A DNA stretch of 64,000 bases from an uncultured Pseudomonadota bacterium (GCA_963836235.1 CAWIIP010000002.1:1472001-1536000); one strand, 5' to 3'. Counted from the stretch's first letter, positions 2,160-11,606 are shown. Made by a program: numbers and translations. The notes: a model not told the origin generated them from the sequence alone.

Positions 2160-2310
2160 CCCCCTTTTTTATCCCACTTAAATCAGGTTTTCTCCCCCTT
2201 CCCTAAAACCTGGGATTGGACTAAGCTTTTACTGTCTAAAAGTAGTCGAATATGCCGCTTCTCTTATTTTCATGGATGCTAATGAGGTTGATGTGGTTGA
2301 GAGGGACAAT

Positions 2311-3546
2311 ATGAATCGGAAATTTTTTTATGGGGCGGCCGCTTCTTGGTTGCTATTGGCCGGGATGGTATTAACGGGTTGTCCAAGTAAATTAACCATT
2401 CCTACCGCGCCTCCTCCTCCCCCGACAGCGACTTCCACCCTCGTCTCGACGAACAGCCCTTCCTTGACGCCCACAGGAACCCCGCCACCCGCCACCCACA
2501 CGCCTTCTTCGACCTGCAGTTTCACCCCGACGAATACCATTTCCCCCCCAACACCCACCTCGACCGCCACCAACACGGCCACGAATAGCCCGATCATCAC
2601 TTCGACGAATTCCCCGACCAACAGCGCCACTTCCACGAATACATTTACGGCCACCTTCACCCCGACGGCCACGCCCTCATTCACGATCACCAACACCCCA
2701 ACCGCCACCCCGACTCCCACCGGTCCTACCTCAACCCCGACCAGCACTTTCACTCCTCCCGCTTTCGACTTTTCTTCCGGCGTGACCAATTTGACGACGG
2801 GCCTTTATACTTTTAGCTGCGTCCATATTGGGGCCGGGGGTGTGGTGTCCATTTACGGCGCCGTCACCATTATGACGACCTGCTTTACCCTGGACGCCGG
2901 GGCGACTATTTCGGGAACGGGGAATGGGTACTTAGGAAATACCGGCGGGGGGCCGGGTGTCGGTTGGGGCGGCGCGGTGACTTGCGCCTGTGTTCCGCCT
3001 CTGTTGGGTTTTGGCGGGGGCGGGGGCCATGGTGGGGCGGGAGCGACTTTTTGCGATGGCGCTTCCTGCGCTCCCGGGGGAACCACCAACGACAATCCCG
3101 CGAATCCCACTTTAATGGGAAGCGCCGGGGGAAATGTCCAAGGTCTTTTAATCGGTTCCGGCTCAGGTGGAGCGCTGCTGAAAATCATTGTTTATGACCC
3201 TGTCGCAAACGCGGTGGCCCCGGCGACCGTGAATGGGACCATCGACATGACCGGGGGCGCGGGCGGGAGCGACTATACGGATGACGAATATAGCGGCGGG
3301 GGCGCGGGGGGAGCGGTCTACCTTGAGGCCAGCACCCTTTCCGGAACCGGGCTCGTGCAGGCCAACGGCGGGGCGGCGAATTATTCGGGCGGCGGCGGGG
3401 GGGGCCTAATCTCTTTCCTTGAAAATTTAACCTCCTTTCCGGGAACAACTTCCGTGGTGGGCGGCATTTCGGCCAGCAGTTCTTCCGACGACGGCGCTCC
3501 CGGAACGGTGACCTTCACCACGGCGCCGGTGAGCGGCTACCTTTAA
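2311..3546 (+). CDS. Lipoprotein with Pro/Thr-rich stalk and Gly-rich C-terminal domain
   Basis: Signal with LTG-C lipobox; TPT repeats; GGGGG...GGAGG beta-helix-like tail. ATG 2311 follows GAGGGA. Confidence 0.75.
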   Translation: MNRKFFYGAAASWLLLAGMVLTGCPSKLTIPTAPPPPPTATSTLVSTNSPSLTPTGTPPPATHTPSSTCSFTPTNTISPPTPTSTATNTATNSPIITSTNSPTNSATSTNTFTATFTPTATPSFTITNTPTATPTPTGPTSTPTSTFTPPAFDFSSGVTNLTTGLYTFSCVHIGAGGVVSIYGAVTIMTTCFTLDAGATISGTGNGYLGNTGGGPGVGWGGAVTCACVPPLLGFGGGGGHGGAGATFCDGASCAPGGTTNDNPANPTLMGSAGGNVQGLLIGSGSGGALLKIIVYDPVANAVAPATVNGTIDMTGGAGGSDYTDDEYSGGGAGGAVYLEASTLSGTGLVQANGGAANYSGGGGGGLISFLENLTSFPGTTSVVGGISASSSSDDGAPGTVTFTTAPVSGYL

Positions 3547-3630: not shown

Positions 3631-3658
3631 ATATTGCGCCCAGGGCCCGTCACGGACA
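3631..3658. repeat. Degenerate right-half copy (R0) of the 28-bp cassette repeat
   Basis: GGGCCCGTCACGGACA matches GGACCCGTCGTGGACA at 13/16; left arm unrelated. Confidence 0.45.
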
Positions 3659-3692
3659 ATGTCCTGGTGAGAAACTTGAATAGGAGTCGCTG

Positions 3693-4121
3693 ATGAATTC
3701 ACAATGGGCTTTTGTTTTATTGACCACCCTCTCTTTTGGTTTTTTTAATATTTTCATCCGGGCGGCGGGGCCGAAGATCGGCGGTATTTTAGGGCCCTTG
3801 TTCGTGGAGGGGTTCGCGGCGGCGGTTCTCCTGCTGTTTTTCCTTTGGCGGAAATGGAACGGGTCGGTGGAGCCGGTGACTTCCCTGGGAGCGGCCTATT
3901 CCATGGCCGCCGGCTTTTGCGCCGCCGCCGGTTCGATCGGGTTCTTCGTCGTCTTTTCCAAGGGAGGGATGCTTTCAGCGGCCGGTTCCTTTGTCTTGAT
4001 CGGAAGCACGATGCTGACCATCTTGGGCGGCTTTGTCCTTTTTAAGGAACCGGTCAACGCCTACCGTGCCGTGGGAATCCTATTGGGGCTTGTCAGCCTT
4101 TACCTATTGCGCATGGATTAA
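3693..4121 (+). CDS. EamA/DMT-family small transporter
   Basis: About 5 TM helices, C-terminal G..LFKEP....GI.L motif; RBS AGGAG. Confidence 0.8.
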   Translation: MNSQWAFVLLTTLSFGFFNIFIRAAGPKIGGILGPLFVEGFAAAVLLLFFLWRKWNGSVEPVTSLGAAYSMAAGFCAAAGSIGFFVVFSKGGMLSAAGSFVLIGSTMLTILGGFVLFKEPVNAYRAVGILLGLVSLYLLRMD

Positions 4122-4169
4122 AAAAGTCGGTGGATTCTTTGTTAGGACCAACGAAGCGTTCTGTAAAGT

Positions 4170-4197
4170 TGTCCACGACGGGGACCCTTCGTGGACA
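4170..4197. repeat. 28-bp palindromic cassette repeat R1
   Basis: TGTCCACGACGGGGACCCTTCGTGGACA. Confidence 0.95.
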
Positions 4198-4230
4198 GGT
4201 AAATTTAATGCGGGACTAAAGGAGAAACAA

Positions 4231-4536
4231 ATGCTGGAATTGAGGCCCACTTGCGAGAATTGCAATAAACCTTTGCCGCCTGAATCCCTAGAAGCGAGGA
4301 TTTGTACCTACGAGTGCACATTTTGCTCGGCTTGCGTGGAGCTTCTTGAAAATGTATGCCCCAGTTGCGGCGGTGGATTCTGTCCCAGGCCCATCCGGCC
4401 AAAAACCAATTGGAAGGGCGATAATTATCTGGGGAAAGACCCGGCGAGTACTAAGATCAAGCACCGCCCCGTTGATTTAAAAGAACATGCCCAGTTTTCT
4501 CTTCCGATTAAGAATCTGCCGCCTGAAAAAAGATAA
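4231..4536 (+). CDS. DUF1272 family Cys-rich protein
   Basis: MLELRPTCENC...ARICTYECTFC..C....NVCP.CGG...RP.RP signature; AAGGAG RBS before ATG 4231. Confidence 0.9.
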   Translation: MLELRPTCENCNKPLPPESLEARICTYECTFCSACVELLENVCPSCGGGFCPRPIRPKTNWKGDNYLGKDPASTKIKHRPVDLKEHAQFSLPIKNLPPEKR

Positions 4537-4543
4537 TGGGCGT

Positions 4544-4562
4544 TGTCCACGATGGGGACCCA
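4544..4562. repeat. Repeat R2, left part (5' exon of intron)
   Basis: TGTCCACGATGGGGACCCA; the remaining TCGTGGACA is at 6493-6501. Confidence 0.93.
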
Positions 4563-6492
4563 GCGCGCCAAGAAAGCTGTTGTTCATCCAGTCGGCTGAA
4601 ATGTGCCGACCCAGACAAAATTTGGCAGTCTGGTAGCAGGGAGCCGAATCGGGCAGGGTAACCTGCCAGGTTCAAGCGGCTCGACAAAGGGCGGCAAAGC
4701 GCCCGATGCGAAAGGACGGGTCGTAACACGTGTGAACCTAGGTGTAACCTCGTAACGTCGAGATTGAGGAGGGTGACCCTTTTGGGTCTTGGGGAAACCA
4801 GTATTCCATGCGGGAGCCAGAAATACGCATGGGACTGCTTCGGGGTAACAGGGGCGACACGTCCAGACGGAGAACAACGGAACTTGGGAGACCCATAGGG
4901 AAGCACAAGGTACCTGCCTATAAGTCTAAGCGGCGAAATGGCAGGGAGAGCCTATGGGAGTCAGACAAGCCTACAGTAGCTATGAGGGCTAGGACTAAAC
5001 CTAGTCAGAGCAAAGGGGCTTGACCTGGGTAGAGCTTGGCCAGGAGAGAGGGACAAGGGATTGGCGATGAGCCTAGTAACCCTACAAAAAGTTCAGGATC
5101 TTCAGCACAAGCTAGCTGGGAGGAGTAAGTCAAAGCCGAAAGAACGTTTCTACAGTCTCTACGACAAGGTGTGCCGGAAAGAGGTTCTGTGGGAAGCATG
5201 GCAGAAGGTGAAGGGCAATGGAGGTTCCGGAGGAGTGGACGGGGTAACGGTGGAAGGTATAAAGGCCACCGGAGAGAAGGAATACCTGCGGGCACTCTGG
5301 ACGGAGCTGAAGGAAAAGGAATATAAGCCATTGCCGCTCAGGCGGGTTTGGATACTAAAGGCCAACGGGAAGAAAAGGCCCTTGGGGATACCGACGGTGA
5401 AAGACCGGATTGTACAGCAAGCGGTACGATTCGTTATGGAGCCGATCTTCGAGGCGCACTTCTCGGAAGTGTCCTTTGGATTCAGGCCAGGCCGGGACTG
5501 CCATCAGGCCATCACCAGAGTGGTGACATACCTAAATTGGGGTATGGTGAACGTGGTTGAGACGGACATTGTGGACTGCTTCGGAAGTATCCCACATGGA
5601 AGGCTGTTGAAAGCGGTGGCTCGCAGGATAGCCGACAAAGGTATCCTGAGGGTGATCCGGCAATGGCTGAAATGCGGGGTGATGGAAGAAGGGCAGTTCC
5701 AAGAAACGACCACGGGAACGCCTCAAGGAGGGGTGATTTCGCCGCTTCTGGCGAATATTTACCTGGATGCGCTGGATCAACTTTGGAAGAAGCGGAAGAT
5801 GGATTCCAAAAGCGGATACAACGCCCAAATGGTCAGATACGCCGATGACATGGTAATTCTCACGGATCGGAGCCCCCGGGAGGCGGAAAGGCTGCTGAGG
5901 GAAACCTTGGGCAGACTGGATTTGAAGCCTCACCCGGAAAAGACGCGGGTGGTGAACGCAAAGGCAGGGGATTTTAACTTTCTGGGGTTCAATTTCCGAC
6001 AGCGGAAGAATCCCCGAACAGGGAGAAGCCAATGCCTGTTTCAACCCTCGCAGAAGGCCCAAAAGAATGTGCGGGAGAAAATCAGACTGGCTACAGCAAG
6101 CCCGGAGTTAAATGAACTGGGTAAGGTGGTCAGAGAGAAAGTTAATCCCATTCTGAGAGGGTGGGTGAATTACTTTCGGATCGGAAACTCCAGCAAAACT
6201 TTTAATAATCTCCGGAACTTTGCAAAGAAGAGAGTCCTGCGATTTATTCGCAGGAGGAAGAAACAAAGCGGGCCAGGTTGGGACAGGATCAGCGAGGATT
6301 TCCTTTATGGGAAGCTGGGCCTGTTTAAGGAATACCGGGTGAAACGGTTTTCTCAACCCGCTGTGGCTTAGACGAAGGGCCTCCGGTGAATACCCTTGGA
6401 AAGCCGTATGCGGGAAAACCGCACGTACGGTTTGATGAGGAGGCGTTGGAAACGTGCCGGTTATCCGGTGACGCGCCAGTGCTTTACTCTAT
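4563..6492 (+). mobile_element. Complete group II intron inserted in repeat R2
   Basis: 5' GCGCG; EBS1 TGGGTC (4783-4788) in a stem-loop is complementary to IBS1 GACCCA; D5 AAGCCGTATGCGGGAAAACCGCACGTACGGTTT (6401-6433); D6 with bulged A; ends ACTCTAT. Excision restores a perfect palindrome. Confidence 0.93.
5067..6371 (+). CDS. ltrA: Group II intron reverse transcriptase/maturase without HNH endonuclease domain
   Basis: GVDG, RPLGIPTVKDR, SFGFRPGR, GTPQGGVISPLLANIYL, VRYADD, FLGF, domain X RGWVNYF; ORF ends before any En domain. Confidence 0.96.
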   Translation: MSLVTLQKVQDLQHKLAGRSKSKPKERFYSLYDKVCRKEVLWEAWQKVKGNGGSGGVDGVTVEGIKATGEKEYLRALWTELKEKEYKPLPLRRVWILKANGKKRPLGIPTVKDRIVQQAVRFVMEPIFEAHFSEVSFGFRPGRDCHQAITRVVTYLNWGMVNVVETDIVDCFGSIPHGRLLKAVARRIADKGILRVIRQWLKCGVMEEGQFQETTTGTPQGGVISPLLANIYLDALDQLWKKRKMDSKSGYNAQMVRYADDMVILTDRSPREAERLLRETLGRLDLKPHPEKTRVVNAKAGDFNFLGFNFRQRKNPRTGRSQCLFQPSQKAQKNVREKIRLATASPELNELGKVVREKVNPILRGWVNYFRIGNSSKTFNNLRNFAKKRVLRFIRRRKKQSGPGWDRISEDFLYGKLGLFKEYRVKRFSQPAVA

Positions 6493-6501
6493 TCGTGGAC
6501 A
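6493..6501. repeat. Repeat R2, right arm (3' exon)
   Basis: TCGTGGACA directly after the intron 3' end. Confidence 0.9.
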
Positions 6502-6506
6502 CTTAA

Positions 6507-7148
6507 TTGACGGAAAGGGCATTTATGCATGACCGGGAACTAAGAATAAAAATGGTAAGTTTTGTCAAAGAATCGCCAAGCGCGACCCTTTTGCTTTGTT
6601 TTATGGCCGGCATTGTCATCACGCGAACGCTTACTACTTTTGGTTTTGGCTTTAATTATTTCTTTGCGTTTTTATTGCTTTCCGGCTCATTCTTGATTTT
6701 TAGGGTATTGAATTTAAACAGAACGGCTGTCCTTTTAAGCCCCGATTCCATCCAATTTTTCGAATCGATTCCCGTGCAAAGTTTTATCCTGGCTACGAAA
6801 AAAGTGAATGCTAAATGGGAGGATGTGACAAAAGTTCAAACCTATGAAACGTTGATGCAAAAATGGGAATATCGGCAACCTAAAAGTCCCGCTTTTGGGG
6901 GGGCGGTATGGGGTTCGGAGATTCAGTTGAATGATTTGTTTATATTAAAAACTAAACTTTACGTGAGGATTGCGGACAGTTTGAAAGAAAAAAGTTTTAC
7001 GATTTCTATGACTAATGAAAAATATCCCGAATACCTGATTTATTTAAAAAACAAACTGGATCCTTCGAAAATGGATTCGAAAACGATTGAGCTGCAAAAT
7101 CCAAAAATATTGATGGACGAGATGATGAAACGAAAAGTTTTTATTTAA
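6507..7148 (+). CDS. Hypothetical membrane protein (AT-rich cassette cargo)
   Basis: Two N-terminal TM helices plus a soluble domain; true start may be ATG 6523 region or later. Confidence 0.65.
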   Translation: MTERAFMHDRELRIKMVSFVKESPSATLLLCFMAGIVITRTLTTFGFGFNYFFAFLLLSGSFLIFRVLNLNRTAVLLSPDSIQFFESIPVQSFILATKKVNAKWEDVTKVQTYETLMQKWEYRQPKSPAFGGAVWGSEIQLNDLFILKTKLYVRIADSLKEKSFTISMTNEKYPEYLIYLKNKLDPSKMDSKTIELQNPKILMDEMMKRKVFI

Positions 7149-7155
7149 GCAATAT

Positions 7156-7183
7156 TGTCCACGGCGGGGACCCATCGTGGACA
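7156..7183. repeat. 28-bp repeat R3
   Basis: TGTCCACGGCGGGGACCCATCGTGGACA. Confidence 0.95.
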
Positions 7184-7206
7184 CCTAAGAAAGCAATAAT
7201 CAGTAC

Positions 7207-7253
7207 TTGCCACGGAGAAACTTTGGGCATAAAATGTACATCATCATGTACAT
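7207..7253 (+). promoter_or_regulatory. sigma70 promoter with TA autoregulatory operator
   Basis: TTGCCA-N17-TAAAAT overlapping two ATGTACAT palindromes (7234-7241, 7246-7253). Confidence 0.75.
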
Positions 7254-7265
7254 AAGGAGTTGCTC

Positions 7266-7547
7266 GTGACACCAACTAGCTTTACCATTGCACAGGCCCG
7301 AATCCATTTTCCCGGGCTCATCCACGATGCGGAAAAAGGGAAGCCGGTGGAGATAACCCGGCGAGGGAAACCGGTTGCCGTCTTGGTATCGGTGGATGCC
7401 TACCGGCATTTGACCGCACCCCGTCCCGGGTTTTGGGAGGTTGTTTCGGCCTTCCACGGCCGTATCAAAGCGAGTAAGGCCGGTTTGGAACCTAAAGATC
7501 TCCGGGGAATCCGCGAAACCGGACCCGGAAGAGAATTTAAGTGGTGA
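7266..7547 (+). CDS. Phd/YefM antitoxin
   Basis: FTIAQAR..F..LI....G.PVEITRRGKPVAVLVS; GTG after AAGGAG. Confidence 0.9.
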   Translation: MTPTSFTIAQARIHFPGLIHDAEKGKPVEITRRGKPVAVLVSVDAYRHLTAPRPGFWEVVSAFHGRIKASKAGLEPKDLRGIRETGPGREFKW

Positions 7548-7975
7548 AGCCCCGGTACTTGTTAGACACCAATGTCGTTTCGGAAGCAGCCCGTGTAAAA
7601 CCAAATCCCAATGTGATGAGAAAACTTGAGCGGCACAAAGACGAAATGGGAATCGCAAGTATTGTTTGGCATGAACTCGTCTTCGGCTGCGACCGCTTGC
7701 CACCCTCCGAAAAACGGACCCTTTTAGAGGAATTCCTTTCGGAATTAGCAAACTCCTCCATGTTAATTTTTCCTTATGACACGGAAGCGGCTGCTTGGCA
7801 CGGCCGGGAGCGTGCCCGTTTATCCAGACTGGGACTTACACCGGCATTCGCGGATGGGCAGATTGCTTCCATCGCGAAAGTCCATGATTTGATCCTGGTC
7901 ACCAACAACATCCGGAATTACCGTCATTTCGATCAACTGAAGATGGAGAATTGGCACGGCATGGCTAAAAATTGA
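7541..7975 (+). CDS. vapC: PIN-domain VapC toxin
   Basis: YLLDTNVVSE, EL..G, ADGQIASIA, LVTNN; overlaps antitoxin. Confidence 0.93.
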   Translation: MVKPRYLLDTNVVSEAARVKPNPNVMRKLERHKDEMGIASIVWHELVFGCDRLPPSEKRTLLEEFLSELANSSMLIFPYDTEAAAWHGRERARLSRLGLTPAFADGQIASIAKVHDLILVTNNIRNYRHFDQLKMENWHGMAKN

Positions 7976-7983
7976 AAAATGCT

Positions 7984-8011
7984 TGTCCACGATGGGGACC
8001 CGTCGTGGACA
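7984..8011. repeat. 28-bp repeat R4
   Basis: TGTCCACGATGGGGACCCGTCGTGGACA. Confidence 0.95.
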
Positions 8012-8076
8012 ATCATTTCTGCCACAAAAGGGTTAATATAAAGACGCCGTAAGTTGTTGCGTTGGAGAGGTGAATT

Positions 8077-8571
8077 ATAAAAAAAATATTATCAGGAATT
8101 TTAATATTTTTTGTTGGAGCTTTTGCATTCTACTTCCCTAGCTTTGTGGGTCACGCTTTTTCCGGGAATGGGGAATTTTCGAAACCAGAATTTTTTTTAA
8201 TATTCATTTGTCCTTTTATAACTTCACTTTTAATGCTTCTTTGGTTTAGAAAAAAATTCGTTTTAATTCCCAAAGGGTTAATTTCCTTAATTTTTATTTT
8301 GGGGATATGGATTTTGGGAACATTTGCAACTATGGCGAGCGCTAGCTTAGCAGGCGCAGGGTTTACAAAAATAGCTTCATTTTCTGATTGGAAAGATTTG
8401 ATCGTTCTAACTCTATGTTTTCCTCTTTCGACATTTGAGTGCACTACTTATGATGGAACATTAGGGGCATTGTTTGCTTTTTCTCTGTTTGTTCTTATCT
8501 GGATATTGATTGATGTTATTGTTTTAGTCAAAAAGGGCGGCAAAAAGAAGTTAGCCATTGATCGAACATAA
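8077..8571 (+). CDS. Hypothetical integral membrane protein (AT-rich cassette cargo); probable ATA start
   Basis: Frame is open upstream of GTG 8146 to ATA 8077 (IKKILSGILIFFVGAFAF), behind GGAGAGGTG; 4-5 TM helices. Confidence 0.6.
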   Translation: MKKILSGILIFFVGAFAFYFPSFVGHAFSGNGEFSKPEFFLIFICPFITSLLMLLWFRKKFVLIPKGLISLIFILGIWILGTFATMASASLAGAGFTKIASFSDWKDLIVLTLCFPLSTFECTTYDGTLGALFAFSLFVLIWILIDVIVLVKKGGKKKLAIDRT

Positions 8572-8656
8572 ATTTCTTCATGCGCTCCTTTATGGTCGAA
8601 TTACCTGGGATTTGTTGGTTCGTAAATCGGAATGGGGTCTTTGGTCATTTAGAGCT

Positions 8657-8684
8657 TGTCCACGACGGGGACCCACATTGGACA
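8657..8684. repeat. 28-bp repeat R5
   Basis: TGTCCACGACGGGGACCCACATTGGACA (right arm partly diverged). Confidence 0.9.
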
Positions 8685-8698
8685 AGGAAAATGTTTTA

Positions 8699-8725
8699 AT
8701 ATGTACGGAATAATACCGTACATAT
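8699..8725. promoter_or_regulatory. Operator palindrome of DUF1778/GNAT TA operon
   Basis: ATATGTACGG-N7-CCGTACATAT just upstream of -10-like TATATT. Confidence 0.7.
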
Positions 8726-8746
8726 GGTATATTTAAAACAGAGGTA

Positions 8747-9034
8747 ATGGCCATGACGAAAGCCCTAAAAACCAAGGAAGAACGCATTGAACTAAGGGTA
8801 AGACCCCAGGATAAGCGATTGCTGGAAAAGGCGGCTCAGGCCCAGGGTTTGAGCCTGAGTTCCTATCTCGTGACGCGGTCCCTCCATGCGGCCCAGGAAG
8901 ACGCGATCCCGGTTAAAACCTATGTTCCGCCTAAACGGGACGTGGACTTATTCCTGAGGCTTCTAGAAAACCCTCCCGCGCCTAACGAAAAGCTTAAGGC
9001 GGCGGCACGGCGCTACCAAAAAGAAATATCCTGA
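8747..9034 (+). CDS. DUF1778 (TacA-like RHH) antitoxin
   Basis: KEERIELRV....K.LLEKAA...G.SLSSY...F..LLENPP.PNEKL. Confidence 0.92.
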   Translation: MAMTKALKTKEERIELRVRPQDKRLLEKAAQAQGLSLSSYLVTRSLHAAQEDAIPVKTYVPPKRDVDLFLRLLENPPAPNEKLKAAARRYQKEIS

Positions 9035-9043
9035 TTTTCCGTT

Positions 9044-9562
9044 ATGACAGGCCCAAAATGGAAGTTTGTGCCCATCACAGAAAAACCGGACCTCGAATGT
9101 TTTGATTCCGGCATTCCTGAACTCAATGATTATCTGAAAAAATACGCGGGCCAGAACCACCGCAAGGGGTTAGGAAGCACTTATGTCCTCGTTCCGGCCG
9201 AAGGAGAACCGGTTGCGGCTGGTTATCACACCTTGAGCATGGCTCAGGTGGAATTGCATTCGCTGCCGGAATCCCAACGCAAAAACCTCCCGAAGTATCC
9301 GGTCCCCGCGGTCCGATTGGGACGCCTTGCCGTTGACCGCCAATGGCAAGGAACTGGATTGGGGGAGATATTACTGATCGATGCCATCCGCCGGTCTGTT
9401 GCCGCCGTCCAATCGGTGGCCGCGAAGTATATGATCGTCGATGCCAAAAACAAAAAGGCTGAGGAGTTTTACCACCGATACGGGTTTCAACCCTTTGAAG
9501 GCGGTTCGCACTCATTAGTGGCAGCCATTGATACCTTAAAAGTACTTTTTACGAAAGGTTGA
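9044..9562 (+). CDS. GNAT acetyltransferase toxin (TacT/AtaT-like)
   Basis: FDSG...LNDYL, P.YPVPAVRLGRLAVD..QGTGLG, VDAK..A..FY..YGF. Confidence 0.92.
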   Translation: MTGPKWKFVPITEKPDLECFDSGIPELNDYLKKYAGQNHRKGLGSTYVLVPAEGEPVAAGYHTLSMAQVELHSLPESQRKNLPKYPVPAVRLGRLAVDRQWQGTGLGEILLIDAIRRSVAAVQSVAAKYMIVDAKNKKAEEFYHRYGFQPFEGGSHSLVAAIDTLKVLFTKG

Positions 9563-9569
9563 AAAATCC

Positions 9570-9597
9570 TGTCTAAGACGGGAACCGCATTGAATGG
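9570..9597. repeat. Degenerate left-half copy (R6) of the 28-bp repeat
   Basis: TGTCTAAGACGGGAACCG matches TGTCCACGACGGGGACCC at 14/18; lies 7 nt after a stop codon, as R2 and R3 do. Confidence 0.55.
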
Positions 9598-10099: not shown

Positions 10100-10277
10100 G
10101 AGCTTGGCTGGTGGGGTCTATCCATGCCCCTTTCATCCCTTTAAAACAGGCCTTTTTCACTTCTTTAAAATAATTTGGATTTAACCGGCCTTTTCCCGTC
10201 TAAAGGTTGGCGGTTATGACGCTAGTCCTATTTCCATTATCCCCTGGGAGGAGATGATGGTTCTTACGGGGGAAAAT

Positions 10278-11606
10278 ATGGAACGGAAATTCTTTCTCGG
10301 GGTAGTGGTCTCTTGGATGTTGTCGGCCGGACTGGTTTTAACAGGTTGCCCCAGCCACCTCGGGGTTCCTTCCGCGCCCCCGCCTCCCTTGACGGCGACT
10401 TCCACCTTCGCTTCGACCAATAGCCCTTCTTTAACGCCCACGGCAACCGCCCCGGCGCTCACTCTGACGGGGACTCCCACCCAAACCGTAACAAGTACCG
10501 CCACCAACAGTCCGACATTTACCCCCTTGTCTTCCACCGCGACCTTCACCTTTACGCCCAGCTTTACGCTGAGCCCCATCCCAACACTCACCGTCACGAA
10601 TACGCCGACTAGCGGGGCGAACACTTTCACCCCGACTCTCACCTGGAGTCCGACCGGCATCGTCCCCCTCACCTTTACCCTTACCACCACCGCCTGCCCG
10701 ACCCACACCGCCACCTTATCTGTCACACCTACCCCCTCCAATACGGCCACGGTGACTCCTATCGGTTCTTGGTATACCTCCACCCCAACGGGTACTCCCA
10801 CCATCACCGGAACTCCCACTCTCACCGGCACGCCCACCCACACCGGAACCCCGACTAGCACCCTGCCGCCACCGCCCACTTTTACCGGCACGCCGACCCA
10901 GACTCCCAACGCCACGGCGACTTCCTGCCCTCCCGGTTTCGTGATGGGGAACAACAGCGTGGGGCTTTATGAGGATACGGACACCCAAAGGCTGAAACTC
11001 AACCGTTACACCGCGCCTTATAACACGACCCTCTATAGCATCACCGGCGCTTATTACAACGGAGGATTCACGCCGGATTTCACCTTCGCCGTTTACGACG
11101 ATAACGGAAGCGGAACCGCGCCGACCACCTTGTTGAGCCAGGCGGTTTATCCCTCCACCAGCGGCAGTTATGCCTACAGCTATCCTTGGGCCACCTTCAA
11201 CCTGGCGACTCCGGTCACCGTCACGACTAGGAAATATTATTGGCTTGGGTACAGCCTCAACGCGGGTTATTTCTTTTACAGTCCGACCACGTCGGTGACT
11301 TACGCTTATCAATATCCGGCCCCGCCGCAATCCTTGCCCTCCAGTTTTTCGGGAACCGTCAATCCCGTCGGAACTAACTACGTCCTGTCCCTTTACGTCA
11401 ACGGCTGTCCCTTCACCCCCCTGCCCAATACCCCGACTTACACGGCGACGATGACGCCCACTTCCAGCTTCACTTTCACGGTCACGCCGACGCCCACCGA
11501 CAGCCTCACGCCGACTCCCACGCCGATAGGAAGCTGGTTCACCGCCACCCCGACCATGACTCCCACGCCGACAATCACCTTCACTCCCACCGCCACGCCG
11601 ACCTGA
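10278..11606 (+). CDS. Pro/Thr-rich lipoprotein, paralog of 2311..3546 with a different central domain
   Basis: LTG-C lipobox; shared N-terminus; Tyr-rich beta-sandwich-like domain (AVYDDNG...P..LL, YWLG) between TPT tracts. Confidence 0.75.
   Translation: MERKFFLGVVVSWMLSAGLVLTGCPSHLGVPSAPPPPLTATSTFASTNSPSLTPTATAPALTLTGTPTQTVTSTATNSPTFTPLSSTATFTFTPSFTLSPIPTLTVTNTPTSGANTFTPTLTWSPTGIVPLTFTLTTTACPTHTATLSVTPTPSNTATVTPIGSWYTSTPTGTPTITGTPTLTGTPTHTGTPTSTLPPPPTFTGTPTQTPNATATSCPPGFVMGNNSVGLYEDTDTQRLKLNRYTAPYNTTLYSITGAYYNGGFTPDFTFAVYDDNGSGTAPTTLLSQAVYPSTSGSYAYSYPWATFNLATPVTVTTRKYYWLGYSLNAGYFFYSPTTSVTYAYQYPAPPQSLPSSFSGTVNPVGTNYVLSLYVNGCPFTPLPNTPTYTATMTPTSSFTFTVTPTPTDSLTPTPTPIGSWFTATPTMTPTPTITFTPTATPT

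Follow-up and report, generated by a model that had tools for sequence, protein, structure and literature searches.

In the genome of an uncultured bacterium of peat and soil, one 64-kb stretch of DNA (hereafter the window) contains a short palindrome that recurs between small genes, raising the question of whether it delimits mobile cassettes and, if so, which enzyme moves them. A gene-capture and shuffling system, neither attC- nor XerC/D-based, had been predicted here, and was supported by the accessory nature of the arrays, their variable content, breakpoints that fall at the repeats, and the lack of IntI. We consider it fairly probable that this is an integron-like cassette system run by a short serine recombinase. 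The features of the array in the window were as follows.

3631-3658, + strand: upstream array boundary, right half-site only (3643-3658), read by eye
3693-4121, + strand: cassette 1, ORF of 142 aa, small EamA-like membrane protein (Pfam EamA, E=5e-4, below cut-off)
4170-4197, + strand: 28-bp site, 1 mismatch in the pattern scan
4231-4536, + strand: cassette 2, DUF1272 ORF of 101 aa (Pfam, 86.8 bits), stop codon 7 nt before the next site
4544-4562, + strand: left part of the intron-split site, read by eye
4563-6492, + strand: group II intron (Rfam RF02005 at 4600-4855, RF00029 at 6399-6492)
5061-6371, + strand: intron RT-maturase ORF (Pfam RVT_1 and GIIM)
6493-6501, + strand: right part of the intron-split site, read by eye
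6525-7148, + strand: cassette 3, AT-rich membrane ORF of about 207 aa, no Pfam family, stop codon 7 nt before the next site
7156-7183, + strand: 28-bp site, 1 mismatch in the pattern scan
7260-7975, + strand: cassette 4, Phd/YefM antitoxin (7260-7547) and PIN/VapC toxin (7541-7975), by Pfam
7984-8011, + strand: 28-bp site, exact pattern match (0 mismatches)
8146-8571, + strand: cassette 5, AT-rich membrane-like ORF of 141 aa, no Pfam family, interval GC 0.37
8657-8684, + strand: 28-bp site with variant right arm, 3 mismatches in the pattern scan, all at positions 19-22
8747-9562, + strand: cassette 6, TacA-like antitoxin (8747-9034) and GNAT acetyltransferase toxin-like ORF (9044-9562), by Pfam
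9570-9597, + strand: degenerate terminal site, left half matching 11 of 13 arm positions, right half decayed, by eye

The pattern scan and our reading by eye bore out the full palindromes predicted at 4170, 7156, 7984 and 8657 and the intron-split copy at 4544. As also predicted, no copies beyond those at the array were found in the 64-kb window, and 100 shuffled sequences yielded 0 matches. The degenerate ends proposed at 3631 and 9570 are both real but unequal. The upstream half-site at 3643-3658 matches 11 of 13 right-arm positions by eye (more than 3 mismatches in the pattern scan), and this boundary looks like a hybrid junction of site and non-site DNA; the terminal site, which likewise exceeded 3 mismatches, has a good left half, and no recombinase remnant was found adjoining it. 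Successive sites are spaced by 374, 2612 (about 680 minus the intron), 828, 673 and 913 bp. ORF and Pfam searches confirmed one co-oriented + strand gene or toxin-antitoxin pair per interval, and ORF coordinates confirmed that four cassette stop codons end 7-8 nt upstream of the following site. The cargo as first read also held under Pfam, with a weak EamA match (20.7 bits), DUF1778 corresponding to TacA1, and two ORFs without a match.

Across the window genome we identified 70 places with at most 6 mismatches to the site, in 18 loci, where 0 were expected by chance; these include 10 arrays of at least 3 sites. Orientation is uniform within every array, with the sole exception of one weak end site. 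In 52 intervals (GC 0.36-0.60), nearly all had their longest ORF along the site direction, with its stop codon 2-50 nt before the next site. A CRISPR array was considered and rejected, the spacings being 234-4747 bp genome-wide and filled with genes rather than with short unique spacers. The original prediction had named occurrence between housekeeping genes as the mark of an ordinary REP sequence; the repeat instead clusters in accessory-gene arrays. Among the genomes searched, the 28-bp site spans one family of candidate division FCPU426 and is confined to it, with the most copies in genome G018 and no convincing copy in G017 or G007.

Homologous cassettes, up to 100% identical, sit amid unrelated neighbours in other arrays, species and genera. 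A 1273-bp cassette found at both C2:1195352 and C4:57529 is 100% identical from site to site, with unrelated neighbours. The Phd-VapC cassette of the window is 80-92% identical in three other genomes, where its flanks are unrelated; in G001 and in G018 (another genus) the identity is 90-92% and the similarity ends at the sites. The housekeeping flanks of G001 are just 71-79% identical to those of the window, and no array was found at its syntenic locus. Cassette 6 is 86% identical to a cassette of G005. From 267 unique intervals we recovered 45 homologous cassette pairs, in 42 of which both outer flanks were unrelated. These cross-genome alignments bear out the expectation that content varies and breakpoints fall on the repeats, and show that the cassettes are modular within and between genomes. 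No excision circles or empty sites were seen, the sole joint in public contigs (4187 to 7156, run X1) being based on 21 letters.

The homologous pairs also bracket the point of exchange. At their upstream site, left-arm positions 1, 7 and 11 differ and rare right-arm variants are common to both members; at their downstream site, the two are identical through position 15, and differences begin at 16, 18 or 19. These comparisons place the exchange point between site positions 11 and 16, at the palindrome centre, and exchange at the centre gives each cassette two half-sites. The site consists of 13-bp inverted arms flanking GA (13-2-13), the central GA being its sole asymmetry. When places were matched by their outer arms alone, 328 of 343 had GA at the centre, and conservation drops from position 16 on; positions 16 and 17 are C in 89% and 94% of sites, respectively, and travel together with the right side. 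For arm pairs 6-10 in 316 sites, we counted 29 compensated versus 321 unpaired cells. The alignments show a conserved site sequence and no conservation of hairpin pairing.

The group II intron is inserted between site positions 19 and 20 (boundary ambiguous by 1 nt), and a second copy, 99.8% identical, occupies the same junction of another site at G000:C1:223031. Its RT-maturase ORF contains no endonuclease domain in Pfam, and the intron lies in the sense orientation, in the same direction as the cassettes.

The original prediction placed the recombinase elsewhere. This stood insofar as a candidate was found in the window genome (G000), about 1.3 Mb from the window and abutting the end of another array, with a putative activity on the sites.

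G000:C2:163827-164663: short serine recombinase, Resolvase and Recombinase domains

In Pfam the protein contains PF00239 (residues 13-159), PF07508 (187-271) and no other domain, with a serine, which we take to be catalytic, in a YVRVSS motif. The PF13408 zinc ribbon is absent: relatives of 507-515 aa, 50-55% identical, continue into CxxC motifs, whereas the short protein stops just before their zinc ribbon, and it is by this comparison a truncated derivative of a large serine recombinase, not a standard member. We identified 19 protein clusters of this type, all of 275-283 aa and 74-100% identical, followed by a gap to at most 61% identity; among 10 pairs, the 7 with unsaturated dS give a dN/dS of 0.08-0.16.

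In G000, G022 (two loci that overlap, L043 and L150), G042 and G045, as well as the metagenome contigs L182, L183, L186 and L187, the gene converges on a terminal site, with 13-52 bp between the site and the 3' end of the gene. Adjacency to an array end holds for most genomes and metagenome contigs carrying the gene. The exceptions are G001, with only a degenerate site beside the gene, L185, where the site is 126 bp off and in the other orientation, and L184, which is cut by a contig end. Terminal sites are also adjoined by decayed recombinase fragments in L042, L051 and L083, and in G000 the terminal site at C1:399376 has a 26-aa remnant 18 bp away. Around the longer relatives (at most 61% identity), we found 0 sites at up to 6 mismatches in 73 loci (410 kb). 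The adjacency could alternatively reflect one ancestral array that inserted into a large-serine-recombinase gene, the stump of which then hitch-hiked; the strong purifying selection and the constancy of length make this less likely.

Of the 31 family genomes, only 5 contain an intact copy of the short recombinase, and a few others contain fragments. Searches for Resolvase-domain genes found none in the site-rich genomes G005 (98% complete), G010 (99%), G021, G023 and G016, and G018 (99% complete), which has the most sites, retains fragments only. This absence from many site-rich genomes is the main weakness of the serine-recombinase reading. All of the site-rich genomes that lack the gene are metagenome bins, which often miss mobile DNA. 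The integrase-less arrays of integrons (CALINs) likewise outnumber complete integrons (PMC4889954).

The same cassettes and central exchange might instead be the work of a host tyrosine recombinase that treats the site as a dif-like 11-6-11, as happens in Acinetobacter dif modules or Xer-exploiting elements, with a 353-aa Xer-like protein (G000:C1:328834-329895) as prime suspect. We regard this as unlikely, albeit with several points in its favour: the site is 28 bp long, a cut at 11|12 fits the exchange interval, of the recombinases found, only an Xer-like gene recurs in nearly all family genomes (PF00589 in 30 of 31), arrays in genomes without the serine recombinase would be accounted for, and dif modules also hold toxin-antitoxin pairs and small genes (PMC13141974). 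However, no tyrosine recombinase gene recurrently adjoins the arrays, and the sites of an array share one orientation, where those of dif modules alternate. The arms are mirror images, in agreement with the predicted lack of XerC/D arms, with asymmetry confined to the two central bases, and a 6-bp overlap would include positions 16-17, which are variable and go with the right side. The site is GC-rich, unlike the dif consensus, and the lack of a convincing copy in at least G017 and G007 would be odd for a chromosomal dif. The one Xer-like gene of the window genome falls below the XerC and XerD equivalog cut-offs. An improbable reading is that the palindrome is a REP-like intergenic repeat, RAYT-spread or acting as an RNA hairpin, with cassettes arising by homologous recombination between repeats. 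A short GC-rich palindrome directly after stop codons recalls such elements, single-stranded folding is strong for some copies (-14 kcal/mol), and the genome encodes three Y1 transposases, one above the NCBIfam cut-off for REP-associated tyrosine transposases (88 versus 80 bits). Nonetheless, the sites cluster in 18 accessory-gene loci and not among core genes, and Y1 transposases (PF01797) do not occur in the site-rich G018, G001 and G023, yet are encoded by G017, G007 and G009, where sites are few or missing. Nor do unconserved pairing, folding energies of -6 to -14 kcal/mol, the terminator-like character of only 1 of 4 window sites, a sharp exchange point and half-sites at cassette ends fit this reading.

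Another reading, that the repeats are divergent and unusually short attC sites from a classical integron with a lost or unassembled integrase, is very improbable. Resemblances to integrons are the layout of the cassettes, their cargo of toxin-antitoxin pairs and small ORFs without known function, and a group II intron specific for the site (PMC3001079), but attC-specific introns run against their cassettes, opposite to the intron here. No integron integrase was found in the 99.4%-complete window genome, on which the IntI model was run (TIGR02249, best 40.9 bits versus a cut-off of 265); relatives were screened with PF00589 only. Inspection of the 28-bp site confirmed the predicted lack of the attC end motifs RYYYAAC/GTTRRRY, and it is sequence rather than structure that is conserved, with exchange central, not at one end. 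We attach still less weight to a CRISPR-like process in which Cas1 inserts gene-sized 'spacers', duplicating the repeat. A genuine Cas1 (protein scan, 250.9 bits) and a 111-aa partner ORF do lie directly after a terminal site, and copies 98-99% identical adjoin sites at three loci of another species. Yet Cas1 is present in only 9 of the 31 family genomes and absent from G018, G001, G010, G023 and G016, it is co-oriented like cargo, and half-sites travel with the cassettes, unlike a repeat duplication.

Under the serine-recombinase reading, the array in the window would be one of about ten mobile-cassette arrays in the genome, each cassette beginning with a right half-site and ending with a left one, around a single promoter-poor gene or toxin-antitoxin pair. 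Cassettes would leave as circles and re-enter by conservative site-specific recombination at the site centre. The enzyme would be the 275-283-aa serine recombinase, ending after the Recombinase domain and without zinc ribbon and coiled coil; a dimer may bind the two arms, cut with a 2-nt stagger at GA, and rejoin the strands after subunit rotation. The non-palindromic GA would render head-to-tail products alone viable, which would explain the co-orientation of the sites. The recombinase gene, convergent at the downstream end of some arrays by a terminal site with a degenerate right arm, may be the counterpart of the intI-attI platform, and gene-less arrays such as that of the window would be served in trans or be relics, like CALINs.

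As in integrons and CALINs, promoter-poor cassettes, most of them with a single gene, follow one another in the same orientation, and each is closed by a recombination site. The cargo likewise abounds in toxin-antitoxin pairs and small unknown proteins, some arrays have a recombinase gene at one end and many have none, and, as in integrons, a group II intron is specific for the site. In contrast to integrons, there is no IntI, and a serine recombinase is the candidate; the duplex-type palindrome of 28 bp is conserved in sequence, whereas attC (55-140 nt) is a folded single strand with conserved structure; exchange is at the centre, with two half-sites per cassette, and not at one end; the recombinase gene lies at the downstream end and converges on the cassettes, where that of integrons lies at the upstream end and diverges from them; and the intron is in sense orientation. 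Acinetobacter dif modules share the 28-bp site length, small modules often with toxin-antitoxin pairs, shuffling among replicons, and an enzyme encoded elsewhere. Their pdif sites combine an XerC arm with a different XerD arm, and successive sites have to be in opposite orientations (C and D modules; PMC13141974), in contrast to the identical arms, all-direct sites, chromosomal arrays and single Xer-like gene here.

NCBIfam searches gave matches to CcrA and CcrB. Staphylococcal SCC elements are moved by Ccr large serine recombinases and stack head to tail, separated by attachment-site repeats, and the present arrays resemble them in the lineage of the candidate recombinase and in stacking. SCC units, however, span tens of kilobases at one chromosomal insertion site, and Ccr is full length, with zinc ribbon and coiled coil; here we find single-gene units, dozens of sites per genome and a candidate enzyme without these modules. 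Small serine recombinases (Hin, Gin, resolvases) act on short crossover sites made of inverted repeats, where an asymmetric 2-bp overlap at the centre sets polarity. The 13-2-13 arms and asymmetric GA centre (328 of 343) would correspond to this design, with exchange bracketed at 11-16 and cleavage at the dinucleotide predicted. Those enzymes have a C-terminal helix-turn-helix, need accessory sites or an enhancer and act only intramolecularly, whereas the short recombinase has a Recombinase domain and must also integrate circles.

If the short serine recombinase is the enzyme, this would be an independent invention of gene capture. We give about even credence to a second, independent invention of the integron principle, in which a truncated serine recombinase, having shed the direction-imposing zinc-ribbon and coiled-coil module, freely excises single-gene circles from, and inserts them into, a minimal 28-bp site. 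Such a system would have built many cassette arrays per genome across an entire candidate phylum-level lineage, with Cas1 genes and a dedicated group II intron riding in the same arrays.

We identified four matches to a 28-bp palindromic site in the window, at 4170, 7156, 7984 and 8657, all of them best on the + strand and with 0-3 mismatches; the pattern scan found no additional copies elsewhere in the 64 kb, and none in 100 shuffles of the window. These results bear out the original prediction, which had placed co-oriented copies at these positions, a further copy at 4544 split by an intron, and degenerate ends at 3631 and 9570. The split copy and both ends were also recognised, giving the following features.

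3643-3658: upstream degenerate end, a right half-site (judged by eye)
4544-4562 and 6493-6501, + strand: split fifth site (sequence reading)
4563-6492, sense relative to the cassettes: group II intron, with Rfam matches at both ends and an RT-maturase ORF lacking an endonuclease domain
9570-9597: downstream degenerate end, a decayed site whose left half is well preserved (judged by eye)
Six intervals between sites, all + strand: cargo, comprising an EamA-like ORF (weak match), DUF1272, two AT-rich ORFs without a family, Phd with PIN, and TacA with GNAT

ORF reading and Pfam agreed with the proposal that each interval holds one gene or one TA pair on the + strand, and in four cases the stop codon indeed lies 7-8 nt upstream of the following site. 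On either side of the array is a lipoprotein-like gene with many Thr-Pro repeats (window 2272-3546 and 10254-11606), the two being paralogues, and three other arrays are also flanked by similar large surface proteins.

The host genome (G000; 3.97 Mb in five contigs, C1 to C5, 99.4% complete, with the window at C2:1472001-1536000) contains the site at 70 places in 18 loci, at up to 6 mismatches, with ten arrays of 3 to 14 sites that are co-oriented within each array, save for one weak end copy. The site forms many arrays rather than a dispersed repeat in this genome. Across 52 intervals, with a GC content of 0.36 to 0.60, in nearly all the longest ORF has the orientation of the site and terminates 2-50 nt upstream of the following one. 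Scanning of 20 further cassette ORFs identified BrnT/BrnA-like and MazE/PIN pairs, HAD hydrolases, GNAT, an outer-membrane barrel, an NHL-repeat protein, a LOG-family protein and AraC with hemerythrin among the matches, and no Pfam family for seven of the 20. Site orientation tracks the sign of GC skew, a pattern that gene-strand bias alone could produce, and the five contigs show no clear terminus in a dif/terminus test by GC skew.

We additionally noted an unusually large cargo, a complete Mg-translocating P-type ATPase (887 aa, 1251 bits) that occupies one 2.9-kb cassette bounded by two sites (G000:C1:432902-435885; L130:14970-17633) and has an 88% identical counterpart among the cassettes of another bin (L051). 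The two largest arrays adjoin integrative/conjugative-element genes (G000:C4:132072-134740; C2:1184034-1186715 and 1205629-1207404), mostly named by eye: a coupling-protein-like ATPase, a homologous pair of 270 and 303 aa, a 367-aa integrase and ParB-like proteins, the last recurring at three array ends. Insertion sequences break up cassettes at G000:C1:370995-375769, C2:1202653-1205568 and C5:1083-4421; they include a 1.7-kb insertion sequence in six copies and a 1.5-kb element with an IS66-like 474-aa transposase (named by eye) in two copies, 99.9% identical.

Comparison between arrays and between relatives showed the cassettes to be modular, as had been predicted. One 1273-bp unit is 100% identical from site to site in two arrays of the host genome, with unrelated flanks. 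The Phd-VapC unit of the window is 90% identical in G001, 92% in G018, which belongs to another genus, and 80% in G005, the similarity beginning at the upstream site and ending at the downstream one, and in the housekeeping flanks of the window identity to G001 is only 71-79%. The matching G001 locus has no site, but its gene content differs too, and it is not a clean empty site. In the host genome and fetched loci combined (422 sites, 267 unique intervals), we identified 45 pairs of cassettes homologous over at least 80% of their length, and both outer flanks were unrelated in 42 of these. The remaining three comprised one with an unjudgeable upstream flank, one with a common upstream neighbour only and one with both neighbours in common. 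Many high-identity matches between species start or stop within 10 nt of a site. Circular cassettes, which the original prediction had expected in sequencing reads, were not seen: the public runs, covered as short Logan contigs only, held neither a circle junction nor a clean empty site, and yielded a single joint, from 4187 to 7156 in run X1, with 21 nt on its shorter side.

The most similar cassette pairs locate the point of exchange. At the upstream site the left arm differs (positions 1, 7 and 11) and rare right-arm variants are common to both members, and at the downstream site the two are identical through position 15, with differences from 16, 18 or 19 onward. This pattern indicates that each cassette begins, at the 5’ end, with a right half-site and finishes, at the 3’ end, with a left one, and, because upstream left arms and downstream positions from 16 differ, that exchange falls between positions 11 and 16. 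We consider it very probable that these are site-bounded mobile cassettes which recombine at the centre of the palindrome. The central dinucleotide is GA in 328 of the 343 places found by the outer arms alone, defining a 13-2-13 site. Positions 1-15 are conserved at 75-99% (position 10 being the Y of the pattern); conservation drops from position 16 and is lowest at 19-22. Arm changes are mostly uncompensated, with 29 compensated versus 321 unpaired cells (arm pairs 6-10 in 316 sites, overlapping loci included), and the single-strand folding energy of the sites is -6 to -14 kcal/mol, a pattern that would suit a protein reading duplex DNA, not a folded hairpin. Positions 16-17 are variable and travel with the right side, which fits a 2-bp overlap better than a 6-bp one.

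We investigated the distribution of the site across related and distant taxa. At up to 3 mismatches, 19 of the 24 other family genomes carry it, spanning at least 13 genera, with one weak copy in the sister family and none in the 15 genomes sampled from the rest of the phylum. A looser pattern also identified copies in G009 and G006, and no convincing copies in G017 or G007. An exact scan of one genome per species, over 185,579 species, returned 89 stretches with the site, titled mostly as candidate division FCPU426 and otherwise as ‘uncultured proteobacterium’ or ‘uncultured bacterium’ bins, plus one bin labelled Firestonebacteria; no viral contigs scanned contained it. The possibility raised earlier that the palindrome is an ordinary genome-wide repeat is not borne out, the sites being clustered in arrays.

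As to the enzyme, no integron integrase was found in the host genome at the family cut-off. Its tyrosine recombinases comprise six paralogous integrases of approximately 367 aa, which are not array-linked and were set aside, one 425-aa integrase whose reading frame, judged by eye, continues into tRNA-like sequence, and a single Xer-like protein (353 aa; G000:C1:328834-329895). The only genes recurrent beside its arrays encode ParB-like proteins (judged by eye) and surface proteins. The genome also encodes three Y1 transposases of 313-319 aa with a C-terminal DnaA-like helix-turn-helix (G000:C2:2047689-2048630, C5:263448-264407 and C2:1841972-1842925), one of which passes the NCBIfam cut-off for REP-associated tyrosine transposases (RAYT); such genes are absent from the site-rich genomes G018, G001 and G023. 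For these transposases, and for Cas1, found in 9 of the 31 family genomes, the co-occurrence pattern was not useful, and both were rejected as candidates; that of the tyrosine recombinases was no more informative.

A different candidate adjoins the arrays themselves. The host genome has two serine recombinase genes, one of which (C2:163827-164663, 278 aa) stops 38 bp short of an array’s terminal site and is encoded on the strand opposite to the cassettes; the same layout occurs in G022 (two overlapping loci, L043 and L150), G042 and G045. Decayed fragments, retaining only residues ~112 to 265, lie beside terminal sites in L042, L051 and L083, and a second host array has a 26-aa C-terminal remnant 18 bp away from its terminal site. 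The G001 gene adjoins only a degenerate site, and a 46% identical relative in G020 has none beside it. Among seven metagenome loci with relatives at at least 75% identity, four have a convergent site 13-52 bp past the gene (one of them with 7 mismatches); in the others, the contig ends inside a site-like start, the site is 126 bp off in the other orientation, or the locus was unjudgeable. By comparison, no site at up to 6 mismatches was found in 73 loci (410 kb) with relatives at 61% identity or less, where three related contigs have one 7-mismatch match in common. Where a terminal site adjoins the gene, its right arm is degenerate, in a form that varies between recombinase subgroups, much as a platform half-site would be expected to look. 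A conserved partial inverted repeat, half-site-like, lies between the recombinase stop codon and the terminal site (L124:2299-2363, G000:C2:164661-164725; also L182) and could be an accessory binding site.

The short recombinase has just two domains, Resolvase at residues 13-159 and a complete Recombinase domain at 187-271. It ends just ahead of the zinc-ribbon cysteines found in 507-515-aa relatives, which share 50-55% identity with it and occur in the same genomes. Comparison of the five intact genes, which represent four genera, gave dN/dS values of 0.08-0.16 in seven of ten pairs, those with unsaturated dS, and a large protein collection contained 19 clusters at 74-100% identity, all of 275-283 aa, followed by a gap to 61% identity or less, a range in which proteins differ in length and the zinc ribbon is found. 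The low dN/dS and uniform length indicate that the short form is a maintained protein and not a fresh pseudogene. Its matches to solved structures by sequence (3guv, 3bvp, 6dgc) cover the catalytic domain only, none including the Recombinase domain.

Cassette exchange might instead be driven by a host tyrosine recombinase, an explanation that we regard as live. The recombinase that the original prediction expected to co-occur with the arrays did not emerge, except in that the Xer-like gene is near-universal in the family, making it the only candidate to which co-occurrence points. Pfam Resolvase domains, found in 12 of 31 family genomes, do not follow the site distribution; the short recombinase is intact in only 5 of the 31, and several site-rich bins have no Resolvase domain at all. 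The case for the serine recombinase rests on adjacency and on site design. Mobile DNA is often missing from bins, and among integrons CALINs are more numerous than complete ones (279 versus 164, about half of the CALINs being in replicons without an encoded IntI; PMC4889954); even so, the rival stands. Against it, tyrosine recombinase genes are not recurrently found beside the arrays, and the behaviour of positions 16-17 suits an overlap of 2 bp better than one of 6 bp.

On balance, gene adjacency and site structure lead us to lean towards an integron-like cassette system run by the short serine recombinase. Dimers of the enzyme would bind the arms, cut around the GA with a 2-nt stagger and swap halves; the non-palindromic GA would bar head-to-head products, keeping arrays co-oriented. 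Two direct sites would recombine to release a one-site circle, which could enter any other site. In large serine recombinases, direction control is tied to the zinc ribbon and coiled coil, and the loss of both may have abolished it here. More speculatively, because left halves are near-invariant and right halves degenerate, cassettes may be born through recombination of a good site 3’ of a gene with a poor pseudo-site 5’ of it.

We additionally identified other elements associated with the site. Two group II introns, 99.8% identical (window 4563-6492 and G000:C1:223031-224988), occupy the same position in two sites, in sense. In run X4, an intron of 97% identity is still preceded by the left half-site and has a different downstream exon, and a related intron in G005 lies outside any site; intron targeting seems to read the left half. 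A bona fide Cas1 gene (TIGR00287, 250.9 bits) with a 111-aa partner ORF without a family (G000:C1:431485-432857; L130:13486-14858, - strand) directly follows the terminal site of an array, with no short-spacer CRISPR array nearby. As cas1 copies 98-99% identical adjoin sites at three loci of another species (L034, L075 and L093), the gene seems to move around as cargo of cassettes. Another repeat family, 37 nt long, is represented by ten copies in the host genome (G000:C4:58813-60814; C2:917796-919302; C1:380527, 405292 and 431421; C2:189964): three on C4, approximately 1 kb apart, run straight on from a 28-bp array, one follows the cas1 cassette, and two on C2 are separated by only ~67 bp. 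The family could represent either another kind of cassette site or a repeat of CRISPR type.

Integrons, which depend on one tyrosine-recombinase lineage and folded single-stranded sites, are to our knowledge the only general platform that stores single genes as exchangeable cassettes. The arrays described here have the same working logic, but were negative for IntI, for attC and for exchange at the site end, consistent with the earlier view that the palindrome is not an attC. That it is not a pdif site was also upheld: dif modules differ in arm symmetry, site orientation and enzyme set (PMC13141974). Likewise, attC-specific introns are inserted in the opposite orientation to the intron found here (PMC3001079). 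We found no description of serine-recombinase cassette arrays in the literature searched, largely outside subscription journals, and of 134 papers mentioning FCPU426 the 15 listed do not deal with mobile elements. We hold the full reading with moderate confidence.

If that reading is right, cassette capture evolved more than once, here with a serine recombinase acting on a simple duplex site of 28 bp. A compact recombinase (~278 aa) with a short defined site, possibly without directionality control, would be of interest for genome engineering, and the near-invariant left and degenerate right half-sites provide a natural case for studying cassette birth. The accessory genes of this uncultured lineage from peat and soil would, moreover, become accessible to targeted recovery, for instance with PCR from one site to the next.
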